Shown in pieces: positions 49,458-52,846 of a stretch of 64,000 nt of DNA. Below the pieces are notes generated by a model. It ran no database searches and was not told where the DNA came from. It saw only the letters and a program-made list of their open reading frames with translations. The translations under genes were made by a program, and so were the position numbers. Location: assembly GCA_965215185.1 (NCBI GenBank), contig OZ244034.1, forward strand, positions 2,400,001 to 2,464,000, written 5' to 3'. This stretch comes from Acidimicrobiia bacterium. Lineage in GTDB: Bacteria > Actinomycetota > Acidimicrobiia > Spongiisociales > ZC4RG35. Within the stretch, counting starts at the first letter, position 1. Each line of letters begins with the position of its first letter.

Positions 49458-49817
49458 ATGCAGTTTCTCACAATCAAAAGCTCAACACCACAAAAACCCA
49501 TCTTGCTCACCGATTCGGCGGTTGCCAAAGTCAAGGCCCTGCTGGCCTCGGAGGGGGAGGACAATCTCGGATTGCGCGTGGCGGTAAGGCCGGGCGGGTG
49601 CTCGGGTTTCTCATATGAAATGTTCTTCGATGCCGACGTGGAGGAAGAGGACATCATCGCCGACTTCGAGGGTGTGCGGGTGCTGGTGGATTCGCAAAGC
49701 GCCAAGCGCATCAGCGGAGCGGTCCTTGACTACCGGGAGGGCTTGATGGATTCTGGGTTTTCCATCGACAATCCCAACGTAACCCGCTCTTGTGGGTGCG
49801 GCAACAGCTTCTCCTAA
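49458..49817 (+). CDS. A-type Fe-S carrier (HesB/IscA/ErpA)
   Basis: GGCSGFSY, NPN...CGCGNSF. Confidence 0.95.
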   Translation: MQFLTIKSSTPQKPILLTDSAVAKVKALLASEGEDNLGLRVAVRPGGCSGFSYEMFFDADVEEEDIIADFEGVRVLVDSQSAKRISGAVLDYREGLMDSGFSIDNPNVTRSCGCGNSFS

Positions 49818-49825
49818 AGAGAACC

Positions 49826-50206
49826 ATGCCAAAACAGGTTCCTCAGCTCACCGGTGCTCCCCCTCCCCTCGCTCCCTACTCTGTGGTTACCGAAGCGCAG
49901 GGGTTGGTTTTCATCTCGGGCCAGATAGCCCTCGATCCGCAAGGCGGCCCAACCCCCGAATCGGCCACCGACCAAGCCGACCTTATTCTCAGAAACATCG
50001 GGAACATATTGACAGAACTTGGCCTTGGCTACTCTGACATCGTCAAAACCACAGTCTTTTTGACAGATATTCGCGACTTCGCAGCGGTCAATGGTGTCTA
50101 CGGCGGATTCTTCGACGGGCCACCCCCCGCCCGCTCAGCGGTGGGAGTGGCGGCTCTACCTCTACCCGGCCTGAAAATCGAGATCGAAGCGATCGCCGCC
50201 CGCTGA
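49826..50206 (+). CDS. ridA: RidA/YjgF family enamine deaminase
   Basis: PYS, SGQI, VKTTVFL, PARS, IEIEAIA. Confidence 0.92.
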   Translation: MPKQVPQLTGAPPPLAPYSVVTEAQGLVFISGQIALDPQGGPTPESATDQADLILRNIGNILTELGLGYSDIVKTTVFLTDIRDFAAVNGVYGGFFDGPPPARSAVGVAALPLPGLKIEIEAIAAR

Positions 50207-50221
50207 CCTTTCGTTCAAGAG

Positions 50222-51627
50222 GGGACTTATATACCTAGGTTGACAGGGCGCCGAATATTTTTGTCACAGGGGTGGGATATTCTCAGGATCGTGGTTCCTT
50301 GGGTGCAGACGATCCGGTTGAAAGGGCGTTGTTCCCGTTCGGCGCACCGTCGCCTGGACGACATCTTCCGCGCAGTGTTGCGAGTTGTGTAACGCATGCC
50401 TGGAATCTTGGAAGGGCACATACCGGTGGTGGAGGGAACACCATCCCGATGAGCCTCTTCCCCTAGAACTGAACCAGTCTCACTATGACCGCCTGGTGAT
50501 GTTCACAGATGTGCGCAAGGACCATCCTGAGTGGGACCGTTTGAGCCTTCAAGTGGGTCGCGGAACGTTGCGCCGCTTTGACCGGACTATCCAATCCTTC
50601 TACGAGAGGTGCAAGGACCCTTCCAAGAAGGCCGGGTTTCCCCGTTTCAAGCCGCGTCACCGGTGGAAGTCGGTAGAGATTGTGAACGCTGACCGCGCGA
50701 TGCTTAAGGCTCCGGGAGAGAGGAAGAACCACAGCGAGAAGTGGTGGAGACTGACGGTGAAAGGCGTGCCGCAGATACGGTTCGAGGACAAGCATGACCG
50801 CCTCATTACCGCGTTGGAGAGCGGCCGGTTGGTGGAACTGCGAGTGGTCCGCACTCCTCTGCGAGTCGAGATACACGCGGTTATCAAGCATCCTGACCGC
50901 CCACCGGTGGCAGATCCTGTCAATCCTGTGGGTTTGGACAAGGGCCTCAAATCGCGTCTGGTCACTTCTGATGGAGAGCACCTACCACCCACAACCGTGG
51001 ATCTGCGACAGGTGCTGCGCGTTCAGCGTCTGTTCAGCAGATCCGTCAAAGGCTCACGGTCTCGCATCAAGAAGCGCAAACACTTAGCCAAACAGCACCG
51101 CCGCCTGCGGGAACAGGCCATCCAAGCCGATTTCCGCCTGGCCGACCGCCTGGTCAAGGCCTACGACAGCATAGCTGCCGAGAAGCTCAATGTCGCCCGA
51201 CTACTGAAAACCAAGCTGTTCTCCAAGAAGATGTCACAGCAACGCTGGGGATCCTTCGATCTCATACTGGAATACAAAGCCGCGAAAGCTGGTATCCGGT
51301 ATGCGGGGGTGAACCCCAGCCACACCTCCACCGGCTGTTCTCGATGCGGGCATCACCAGAAGATGCCCCTCAACGTGAGAACCTTCCGGTGCGAACAGTG
51401 TGGACTATCCATATGCAGAGACCACAATGCTGCAATCAACATATGCGCCCGAGACTATCCCACCTGGGATCCTTGGGGTCGGGTGGGACATGACCTCGTG
51501 TTTCCCGACGCGGTGCGCTCTACAAATCTCTGTTGTAAGACATCTTTCGGCTCAGGCCGGAAGATGCTGGCAGACACCGCAGAACAGTATCACCTAGACG
51601 CTCCGTCAACCTAGGTATATAAGTCCC
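50222..51627 (+). mobile_element. TIR-bounded non-autonomous element carrying only tnpB
   Basis: Perfect 23-bp inverted repeats GGGACTTATATACCTAGGTTGAC (50222-50244) and GTCAACCTAGGTATATAAGTCCC (51605-51627); flanking direct repeats TTCAAGAG (50214-50221) and TTCAAAAG (51628-51635). Confidence 0.85.
50291..51614 (+). pseudogene. tnpB: TnpB RNA-guided endonuclease with a +1 frameshift near 50369 (real or assembly error)
   Basis: N-terminus VQTIRLKGRCSRSAHRRLDDIF in one frame, AQCCELCNACLE onward in the next; GFPRFK, VGLDKG, AEKLNV, CSRC/CEQC, RDHNAAIN. Confidence 0.85.
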
Positions 51628-51628
51628 T

Positions 51629-52846
51629 TCAAAAGACCTCTTGGCACCAGGGCTGGGGATGCCAATCGAACATCGCATCGGCCAGCGCCCAAGCCGATGG
51701 CGCCCCTCGCAAACGTCCCACCATCCCAAGCCGGCGAAACCGAGACCGACCCAGGAAGCTCGCCCCCAGGTCCTCCATATCGAGAATGAGGTCAGGTTCG
51801 TCGCAGACCAGACGACACGATCCCACCCCTCCCACAACCTCCAGGCGATATCGGGAGGACTCGTCCTCCATTGGATCGAACACCTCGATGACGATTGACC
51901 CGTCAGCCGAGTAGCGCCGAGCGGAAAGGGCGACCGGCACATCCAGGATCCTCACCCACAGGCCGTCACAGAGGGTTTGGGACTCTCGAAAGTTGGAGAA
52001 CAGGTGATGCAGGGCTGTCTCGGCGGGGATGTTCCAAGCCTGAAGACGGCTAATGAGATCCTGGTTCACCAAGAAACTCCACAGACCGGAATAGGCCTCC
52101 GGGGTGAGCGCAATCATCTCTGTCAGCAGAACGGTTATCCCCATGGAAATGCCAACCCATGAACCCTGAGTGCGGTACTGCACATATCCGATGGCTTCGC
52201 CGGCGGAGTCAAGCGCCAAGGCGTAGCGGTAACTGCTGGCGTTTTTCCTGTGCCGGGGGTAGTCACCGAGGACTTCCAGTTCCCACCAGGCCGGCGAGCG
52301 GGCAAACATCCCTGGCACCTCTTGGCGCTTGCGTTCGAATATGGGCGGCAAGGCATCCTTAGCCTCAGTGGAATCGATCAGGACGACCCGCGCCGGCCGG
52401 GGCGCCAGCCGGTGTGGAAGCAGCGGAAAGCTATCGATCACCAATTGGGTAGTAACTCCGGCCGCTCCGTATCCAAACCGGCCATACAACGGAGCCTCCG
52501 ATGCCCACAACACGGCCAGCGCCTCCCCTCTCTGCCGGGCATCGGCCAGCAGGTCGGTCATCATCCGGCGCATCAACCCGCGTCGGCGATGACTGGGGAG
52601 CACCGTTACATTGCTTACGCCGGCGGCCGCCACTTCCCCACCCGGGATGGTCAAGTCGAAGCTGTAAACCCCGGCCGCGCCTACCAGCCGCCCTCCGTCG
52701 AAAGCCCCCCGGTTGCGGTCGAGTTCCAGGAGCCGGCGGTCTCTCTCCTCTTCGACGGGATCGGGATCCTGTCCGAAGACAAGGGCCACCGTCCGGCGCA
52801 ACGCTTCCAACTCCTCGGGAAAAACGCCCCGTATCTCCACATCCAT
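51629..52846 (-). CDS. Eis-like GNAT acetyltransferase with C-terminal SCP2 domain
   Basis: VTVLPSHRRRGL, LWASE..LYGRFGYG, LWVRILDV..AL..RRY. Confidence 0.92.
   Translation of the reverse strand: MDVEIRGVFPEELEALRRTVALVFGQDPDPVEEERDRRLLELDRNRGAFDGGRLVGAAGVYSFDLTIPGGEVAAAGVSNVTVLPSHRRRGLMRRMMTDLLADARQRGEALAVLWASEAPLYGRFGYGAAGVTTQLVIDSFPLLPHRLAPRPARVVLIDSTEAKDALPPIFERKRQEVPGMFARSPAWWELEVLGDYPRHRKNASSYRYALALDSAGEAIGYVQYRTQGSWVGISMGITVLLTEMIALTPEAYSGLWSFLVNQDLISRLQAWNIPAETALHHLFSNFRESQTLCDGLWVRILDVPVALSARRYSADGSIVIEVFDPMEDESSRYRLEVVGGVGSCRLVCDEPDLILDMEDLGASFLGRSRFRRLGMVGRLRGAPSAWALADAMFDWHPQPWCQEVF

Follow-up and report, generated by a model that had tools for sequence, protein, structure and literature searches.

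TnpB, the ancestor of Cas12, usually travels with transposases that excise scarlessly and insert at a fixed motif, which doubles as the transposon-adjacent motif (TAM) of the nuclease. Here, we ask what kind of element carries the tnpB gene within positions 50222-51627 of a 64,000-nucleotide stretch of the genome of an Acidimicrobiia bacterium (contig OZ244034.1; the whole stretch is hereafter called the window). The gene lies between terminal inverted repeats (TIRs) that are flanked by short target site duplications (TSDs). We interpret the element as a non-autonomous member of the IS1595 lineage of DDE transposons, which carries TnpB and its omegaRNA, was mobilised in trans, and is now stranded. 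We give this reading a probability of roughly 0.85.

Structure of the element

The element is 1,406 bp long, lies between ridA and an Eis-like gene, and is bounded by a perfect pair of 23-bp TIRs beginning with GGGACTT. The left TIR, GGGACTTATATACCTAGGTTGAC, occupies 50222-50244 on the + strand and recurs on sister copies, and the right TIR occupies 51605-51627 on the - strand, its last five bases (GTCCC, 51623-51627) being the proposed 3' strand of a pseudoknot. A repeat search extended the inverted arms to 50219-50250 and 51599-51630, over 32 nt with 91% complementarity. When the 18-nt core of the TIR was searched with up to three mismatches, exactly two matches were found in the 64-kb window, and two or more matches arose in 0 of 100 shuffles. 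The GC content of the TIR is 43%, compared with 60.7% for the genome, which is a single contig of 3.12 Mb.

Directly outside the TIRs lie the left TSD copy TTCAAGAG (50214-50221, 8 bp) and the right TSD copy TTCAAAAG (51628-51635), which match at seven of eight positions in the window. Metagenome contigs from three other runs, belonging to three studies, bridge the left junction and read A at position 50219, yielding a perfect 8/8 pair of TTCAAAAG. No transposase was detected between the TIRs of the window element by inspection of its open reading frames (ORFs) or by Pfam, and the internal DDE transposase with PF12762 and a zinc ribbon by which IS1595 elements are recognized is thus absent from it. 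The initial annotation had described perfect TIRs that enclose a solo tnpB and are AT-rich relative to the host, near-identical 8-bp flanking repeats, a left copy that had drifted, a stop codon of the Eis-like gene inside the right copy, a tnpB stop inside the right TIR, and the lack of a transposase; all of these descriptions hold, the coordinates exactly, and the drift of the left copy is borne out by the A in the three other metagenomes.

The flanking genes are ridA (49790-50206, + strand; Pfam Ribonuc_L-PSP) and a gene for an Eis-like GNAT acetyltransferase (51629-52846, - strand; GNAT/SCP2), the stop codon of which (51629-51631) falls within the right TSD copy. In the four sequencing runs X5, X6, X7, and X20, no contig that skips the element, as expected of an empty allele, was seen, and none spans the whole element; no contig of these runs crosses the right junction with 31 letters on either side of it. 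Contigs of the RNA library X20, which comes from one study, cover 51475-51602 of the element as well as ridA at a depth of 2-4, and they were not used as evidence for transcription, strand, or ends.

Dispersed copies and empty sites in the genus

We next give the distribution of the TIR among genomes, where G000 denotes the window's own genome, G002-G016 its congeners, and L-numbers individual loci. The own genome contains 21 matches to the TIR core (up to three mismatches), compared with two for a reversed control, and 15 TnpB matches. Other tnpB copies with the same TIRs and different 8-bp TSDs, for which the initial annotation had proposed to search, were found there at 1556143-1557546, 1844345-1845777, and 1861661-1862912, with the same or a variant TIR and with the perfect, mutually different TSDs TAATCGAA, ATTGTTTA, and TAAAGGAG. 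A search for a 15-mer of the TIR, allowing one mismatch, was positive for 6 of the 16 other genomes in the genus, compared with 0 of 44 from outside. Across seven genomes of the genus, 28 TIR pairs were examined, with AT-rich TSDs that matched at 8/8 positions in 16 pairs, at 7/8 in three (the window included), and at 5/8 or fewer in nine.

The insertion site was also compared with its unoccupied counterparts. Matches to ridA and eis lie at most 17 bp apart in all 16 congeners, and the TIR arms were found at none of the 14 empty ridA-eis junctions read (those of all congeners but G010 and G011). Each junction holds a single site, exemplified by ...CGCTGACCCTTCCTCAGAAAACTTCC... in G002. The scenario in which the arms were a hairpin present before insertion, which the initial annotation had named as its refutation, is removed by these junctions.

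The same TIR chassis encloses a range of contents, namely tnpB elements of about 1.4 kb, deletion derivatives of 275-572 bp (miniature inverted-repeat transposable elements, MITEs), a 1,902-bp TnpB-like element, a 3,513-bp element, and transposase-bearing elements. The 1,902-bp element (L075:500-2401, G007:C17) has the same TIRs and the TSD TTGCTTTA, and encodes an enlarged TnpB-like protein of 627 amino acids (aa; PF07282, 8e-12); in the orientation of this gene, a G precedes the TSD on its 5' side. The 3,513-bp element (own genome 952908-956420, locus L038:908-4420) has a perfect TSD ACAGAAAA and ORFs of 640, 170, and 253 aa, and at either end it resembles the omegaRNA-type right end of tnpB elements. 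None of its three ORFs had a match above cut-off in Pfam, PADLOC, or NCBIfam, and the 640-aa ORF shows no relationship to the TnpB-like protein of 627 aa.

G011 holds at least six tnpB elements (contig C10; L105-L109, L074) that are 95-99.6% identical and have mostly perfect TSDs. At one insertion site with the TSD AAAGATTA, G002 carries a 530-bp derivative without tnpB (L081) and G004 the full 1,403-bp tnpB element (L115); this pair is a MITE caught arising through internal deletion. In the own genome, TIR ends accumulate, together with tnpB copies from three subfamilies, in the 40 kb at 1844000-1885000, where some are truncated or nested, and the copy at 1844345-1845777 has a tandem duplication near its 3' end. 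An apparent pair at 1865160-1870858 of the same genome was rejected as an element, as it surrounds ordinary genes (MgtE, NAD synthase).

IS1595 transposases with related TIRs

A further expectation of the initial annotation was an IS1595-type transposase flanked by the same TIR. Such elements were found in congeners, with 8-bp TSDs and with TIRs that are closely related, though not identical, to those of the tnpB elements. L076 in G007 (2,924 bp) has a perfect 30-bp TIR GGGAATTATATACCTAAGTGGCGAAACCGG, which begins GGGAATTATATACCTAAGTGGCG..., and the TSD TTACGTTT, and it encodes a 324-aa transposase of the IS1595 family (PF12762, 1.8e-37; PF12760; NF033547, 183 bits). The window TIR matches that of L076 at 19 of 23 positions, the ends being alike without being identical. 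L131 in G009 (2,746 bp; TIR GGGAATTACATACTTGGGTAGACG, TSD ATAACTAA) encodes a homologous transposase of 318 aa together with a methyltransferase, and its TIR is almost equal to that of tnpB subfamily 2 (GGGACTTATATACTTGGGTAGACG). In L130 of G016, the transposase-bearing end GGGAATTATAGCTAATAGTTGAC carries ...AGTTGAC. Because TTGAC thus lies in the TIR of a transposase-bearing element, it is a part of the TIR and no signal of TnpB, and its interpretation as the TAM of an ancestral IS605-type insertion was dropped.

The passengers of the two autonomous elements L076 (687-2042) and L131 (260-1612) are N6/N4 DNA methyltransferases of about 450 aa, with one weak Mrr_cat match; they are orphan methylases carried by the transposon.

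In the own genome, no intact IS1595 transposase was found. The only trace of such an enzyme there is a 96-aa remnant of an IS1595 DDE domain at 2082731-2083021, which adjoins a TIR-like end GGGACCTATATAC. The Y1 transposase TnpA (PF01797), the partner of TnpB in IS200/IS605 elements, also had 0 matches in this genome, while controls were positive in 6 of 14 reference genomes. Among other congeners, the search for an IS1595 transposase gave nothing in G003, only sub-threshold matches in G004 and G015, and a 163-aa piece in G002. No single element carrying both a transposase and tnpB was found in the genus.

The tnpB gene and the state of the window copy

The main tnpB ORF (50385-51614, + strand) encodes 409 aa, is truncated at its N-terminus, and ends in a TAG stop at 51612-51614 within the right TIR, 13 nt from the end of the element. 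It matches the Pfam domains OrfB_IS605 and Cas12f1-like_TNB as well as the NCBIfam model guided_TnpB (178 bits, cut-off 100). The RuvC residues D185, E266, and D346 (ORF numbering) and the zinc-finger cysteines align to those of ISDra2 TnpB, and the N-terminus is frameshifted. Relative to two sister copies, the window tnpB contains an extra C at about 50368-50369, a frameshift that the initial annotation had missed. This 1-nt insertion severs an out-of-frame N-terminal piece of about 33 codons (VVPWVQTIRLKGRCSRSAHRRLDDIF..., 50291-50392, + strand), which in the sister and intact copies continues in one frame (...DDIFAQCCELYNACLESW). The NCBIfam match begins at profile position 27, in accord with the frameshifted N-terminus. 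Contigs without the extra base at 50368/50369 are present in runs X6 and X7 and may derive from other copies.

The window tnpB is therefore probably dead, as judged from its reading frame, while intact relatives exist, among them the 445-aa gene of L118 and the 468-aa gene at 1952615-1954021 of the own genome. Because the own genome has neither an intact IS1595 transposase nor an IS200/IS605 TnpA, and because tnpB is frameshifted, the window element is a stranded, decaying copy.

A predicted omegaRNA scaffold reaching into the TIR

A putative omegaRNA scaffold was delineated at 51443-51627 (+ strand), overlapping the 3' end of tnpB and the right TIR, where blocks are conserved and compensatory changes occur between subfamilies and phyla. 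It includes a conserved hairpin at 51480-51507 (+ strand), whose stem consists of CGGG (51480-51483) and CCCG (51504-51507) and pairs in 94% of alignment cells, and whose loop begins with GGGAC (51485-51489). Downstream lies the conserved motif CAGTATCACC (51585-51594, + strand), followed by a segment of 10-15 nt that varies among subfamilies (51595-51604 in the window). No Rfam match was obtained over 50000-51900 in E-value mode.

The loop sequence GGGAC is complementary to GTCCC, the last five bases of the right TIR, and the two change together in other elements. TIR ends with GCCCC are accompanied by the loop GGGGA (L153, L159, L164), and TIR ends with TTCCC by the loop GGGAA or GGGAG (L170, L180, L193). 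In a 19-row alignment, the five loop-terminus pairs are formed in 90.5% of cells, with row L182 being misaligned at these columns, and pair 129-306 is never unpaired, being AU in 16 rows and GC in three. The observed percentage paired, number of double-change cells, and covariation score were reached by 0 of 500 shuffles, while two further measures were attained in 73 and 92 shuffles. As a control, the partner was shifted by one to three columns, which lowered pairing to at most 63%. Folding of 16 right ends as single sequences paired the CAGUAUC segment with the TIR in 13, as read by eye from the dot-brackets, although only three of the 16 beat all but at most three of 200 shuffles, which is a weak signal.

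A pseudoknot between the last bases of the scaffold and an upstream loop is a known feature of the TnpB right-end RNA (reRNA), and in eukaryotic Fanzor carriers the TIR and TSD form part of the reRNA scaffold, as described in PMC10711439. The covariation between loop and TIR suggests a pseudoknot and a scaffold that reaches the end of the element. Given this pairing, the known reRNA pseudoknot, and the inclusion of the TIR in Fanzor scaffolds, the scaffold would run to the element's last base and the guide would be read from the TSD and right flank. The predicted guide template in the window is 51628-51647 (+ strand), which covers the right TSD copy and part of the right flank; this assignment draws on the pseudoknot and on the G at 50213 described below.

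An invariant G upstream of the left TSD

Position 50213 (+ strand), directly 5' of the left TSD copy, is a G, and we consider it a candidate TAM position. To compare insertions, elements were oriented with tnpB on the + strand, a TSD match of at least 7/8 was required, and the base immediately 5' of the left TSD was scored. G was found at 28 of 28 independent sites, comprising 21/21 in a first set, 5/5 in a second (L176, L180, L181, L075, L214), and 2/2 in a third (L221, L222); L224 was left out because it is apparently the same insertion as L222 in another sample. With a genomic G frequency of 0.306, the probability of this result is below 1e-13, and even if one side were always G at random, it would be about 0.5^28. 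The base after the right TSD copy is unconstrained (A in 9 of the first 16). Elements without tnpB have G on only 2 of 8 sides, and further single ends without tnpB have it in 0 of 4, no second end, and hence no TSD, having been found for the latter. Copies of tnpB with poor TSDs mostly keep the G, in 5 of 6 cases in one set and also at L177 and L223. Because the TIRs are symmetric while the G is bound to the orientation of tnpB, it points to the tnpB/omegaRNA side of the system, and it looks like a minimal, putative TAM.

Five tnpB copies lacking a matching TSD (own genome 1876117-1877529, 1882825-1884228, and 1952610-1954085; L104 and L107) retain the G and an AT-rich 8-mer on the left, and their right flanks are unrelated and sometimes GC-rich. 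The right, guide-side flank thus seems to be the one replaced in such copies.

Breadth of the tnpB-TIR association

Among 61 genome loci encoding tnpB relatives, 27 had flanking inverted repeats, 25 of which were of the GGG(A/G)nTTAT type. These loci occur in other Acidimicrobiia, in Rhodobacterales/Paracoccaceae (about 39% identity), and in Thermodesulfobacteriota, Binatia, Arenicellales, and Dehalococcoidia. Four Binatia loci that the repeat scan had scored as having none nevertheless have such TIRs by motif search, and one of them adjoins an IS1595 transposase element with a similar TIR. Among 62 metagenome loci, the TIR was found in 4 of 5 at 58% identity or more, and a repeat of any kind in only 1 of 57 at about 30% identity (with a 2/8 TSD). 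Since the TIR is present in near relatives and hardly at all in those of about 30% identity, it is a trait of the window's TnpB clade and not of TnpB at large. Separately, a distant tnpB of 27% identity in a metagenome-assembled genome of Actinomycetes (L214:2388-3700) lies between different 18-bp TIRs, GGTAGCGGGTCAATTTGA, with a perfect 8-bp TSD AAGAAAAA that is preceded by G.

Proposed mechanism and alternative explanations

In the mechanism that we favor, an IS1595-type transposase supplied in trans would recognize the 23-bp TIRs and direct insertion at the 3' end of the Eis-like gene, where an AT-rich site of 8 bp was thereby duplicated. The omegaRNA scaffold of intact relatives would extend through the right TIR to the element's last base, and the guide would be read from the TSD and the right flank. 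TnpB may then cut unoccupied copies of the insertion site with G just upstream, and recombination would restore the element, which amounts to homing or retention of the kind proposed for IS200/IS605 TnpB. A role of TnpB in retention was reportedly described by Meers et al. in 2023. A more specific proposal, which we regard as tentative and somewhat doubtful, is that this TnpB clade has become co-adapted to a DDE transposon with variable targets, with a scaffold whose 3' portion is formed by the IS1595 TIR, a GUCCC-GGGAC pseudoknot, a guide that starts at the TSD, and a single-G TAM.

Several observations weigh against these readings. All three copies of the window's tnpB subfamily in the own genome are damaged, which makes TnpB activity there doubtful. 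G011, which has the most tnpB copies, young ones at 95-99.6% identity, has no PF12762 match at 95% completeness, and no IS1595 transposase with exactly the TTGAC-type TIR was found together with tnpB. Because neither the own genome nor G011 has an intact IS1595 transposase, the trans-mobilising enzyme is assigned from sibling species, which keeps this step provisional. Nine of the 28 TIR pairs lack a good TSD, one of them being a nested false pair. The pseudoknot pairing was derived from the same sequences before it was counted, its loop is part of the coding sequence, 6 of 19 rows leave pair 130-305 unpaired, and RNAalifold recovered only the 4-bp stem from the broad 19-row alignment. L109, a tnpB copy without a TSD, has C in place of G, and a one-base TAM is unusual for TnpB.

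The alternative that survives best, although we consider it rather unlikely, is that TnpB is a mere passenger of no use to the transposon and that the G is due to the target preference of the transposase, or to another asymmetry within the element, instead of being a TAM. The free decay of tnpB copies fits this view, as does the other cargo on the same chassis (methyltransferases, the 627-aa TnpB-like protein, and ORFs of unknown function), and excision by a DDE transposase creates a break in any case, which lowers the benefit of a homing nuclease (PMC13565253). Symmetric TIRs, however, would hardly tie the G to the orientation of tnpB in 28 of 28 cases when elements without tnpB lack such a tie; the omegaRNA loop also covaries with the TIR terminus, and the association between tnpB and the TIR holds across several phyla.

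The guide might instead be internal, made up of the 10-15 nt variable segment and the inner TIR, so that TnpB would target TIR-bearing DNA such as empty MITEs. Scaffold conservation does fall after CAGTATCACC, 33 nt before the end of the element. Within each subfamily, however, the variable segment is fixed and pairs with the inner TIR like a structural stem, the terminal TIR bases covary with the upstream loop, and the genomes searched yielded no short, empty TIR-TIR sites, which makes an internal guide quite improbable.

Slightly less probable still is that an enzyme other than an IS1595 transposase moved the chassis, its IS1595-like ends being due to shared ancestry or chance. The multiple copies in the own genome and in G011, young in the latter, without any intact IS1595 transposase would be explained in this way, yet completeness of about 95% allows for a transposase on unassembled or lost DNA. 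Moreover, those IS1595 elements of congeners that bear a transposase have TIRs matching over 19-23 positions, the inner part included, and make 8-bp TSDs, and a Binatia genome combines tnpB elements with an IS1595 transposase element of similar TIRs.

Finally, an ordinary IS200/IS605-type (IS1341-like) tnpB inserted after TTGAC inside a host palindrome, with the "TIRs" being the arms of the target hairpin, would account for the resemblance of TTGAC to IS200/IS605 target and TAM motifs (TTGAT for ISDra2; PMC13565253) and for the right end ...GTCAA, but it is refuted by the absence of the arms from all 14 empty sites read and by the occurrence of the same TIRs around copies elsewhere, which each have a separate 8-bp TSD, and is further opposed by the lack of a Y1 TnpA in the own genome and the TTGAC in the TIR of L130, so that it retains practically no weight.

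Relation to known systems

TnpB borne by DDE transposons was described by Altae-Tran et al. (2023, PNAS; PMC10691335), who distinguished six DDE-associated branches (DDE-1 to DDE-6) with inverted ends and tnpB 3' ends at most 250 bp from the transposon end; the ends of solo tnpB elements were near-identical to those of transposase-bearing systems, and these elements were mobilised by transposases in trans. The elements studied here likewise have inverted ends, a tnpB 3' end near the transposon end (13 nt, compared with at most 250 bp), and, for solo tnpB, ends that resemble those of transposase-bearing elements. They differ from that account in their IS1595-type chassis and in that no joint transposase-tnpB element was found in the genus. 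IS1595 does not occur in the main text of PMC10691335, where only IS630 is named, and this clade may already be covered by its supplements. ISL2, IS630, and IS1031 are given as DDE partners of TnpB in a 2026 review, which argues that DDE pairings are rare because a break is present after excision anyway and because OMEGA systems are inflexible in recognizing their targets (PMC13565253). Our literature searches returned no relevant paper pairing tnpB with IS1595, and the co-occurrences that were checked proved irrelevant (an IS66 "TnpB" and a gene table).

The initial annotation had proposed that a TnpB/omegaRNA module was captured by a DDE chassis and mobilised in trans in a prokaryote. This capture is supported by the dispersed copies, the empty sites, and the transposases of congeners, whereas its novelty was overstated, as DDE-borne TnpB and trans-mobilised solo copies were already described in 2023 (PMC10691335), and the window copy is broken. 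What is new here is modest, namely another DDE family, IS1595, as a chassis for TnpB, together with two new leads, the pseudoknot with the TIR terminus and the invariant G.

The elements can be placed among several known types. Like IS1341-type solo tnpB, they are about 1.4 kb long and carry only tnpB, with a predicted omegaRNA overlapping the 3' end of the gene. IS200/IS605 elements lack TIRs and TSDs, have a Y1 TnpA partner, and insert 3' of a fixed tetra- or pentanucleotide; the present elements, by contrast, have both kinds of repeat, in a genome that lacks a Y1 TnpA. The IS1595 family is characterized by GG-starting TIRs, 8-bp TSDs, and passenger-carrying derivatives, and the family with these derivatives was reportedly described by Siguier, Gagnevin, and Chandler in 2009. 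The window element and its relatives share the GG-starting TIR (23-30 bp), the 8-bp TSD, and the passenger genes, and their autonomous relatives encode a DDE transposase with an N-terminal zinc ribbon; unlike these, the window element has no transposase. In being transposase-less, TIR-bounded, TSD-flanked, and multi-copy, the elements resemble MITEs and mobile insertion cassettes, but what they carry is an RNA-guided nuclease, with an RNA that seems to be built onto the TIR.

In eukaryotes, Fanzor was reportedly shown by Bao and Jurka in 2013 to have been captured by transposons with TIRs and TSDs. The present elements resemble Fanzor carriers (Yoon et al. 2023, PMC10711439) in combining an RNA-guided nuclease and its guide RNA on an element of the cut-and-paste type, with the TIR inside the predicted scaffold. 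Unlike Fanzor, they are prokaryotic and encode a compact TnpB with the canonical D-E-D residues, and their TSD is variable and AT-rich instead of a fixed TA or TTAA, which prevents it from serving as a constant portion of the scaffold.

With a DDE chassis whose targets vary, the link between the transposition motif and the TAM is lost. The lineage spans Acidimicrobiia, Rhodobacterales, Binatia, and other groups with dozens of independent insertions, so that the start of the guide and the replacement of the TAM become testable. If the co-adaptation proposed above is true, the nuclease could home into almost any site chosen by the transposase, and if the single-G requirement holds, this clade would provide compact nucleases with a very relaxed TAM.

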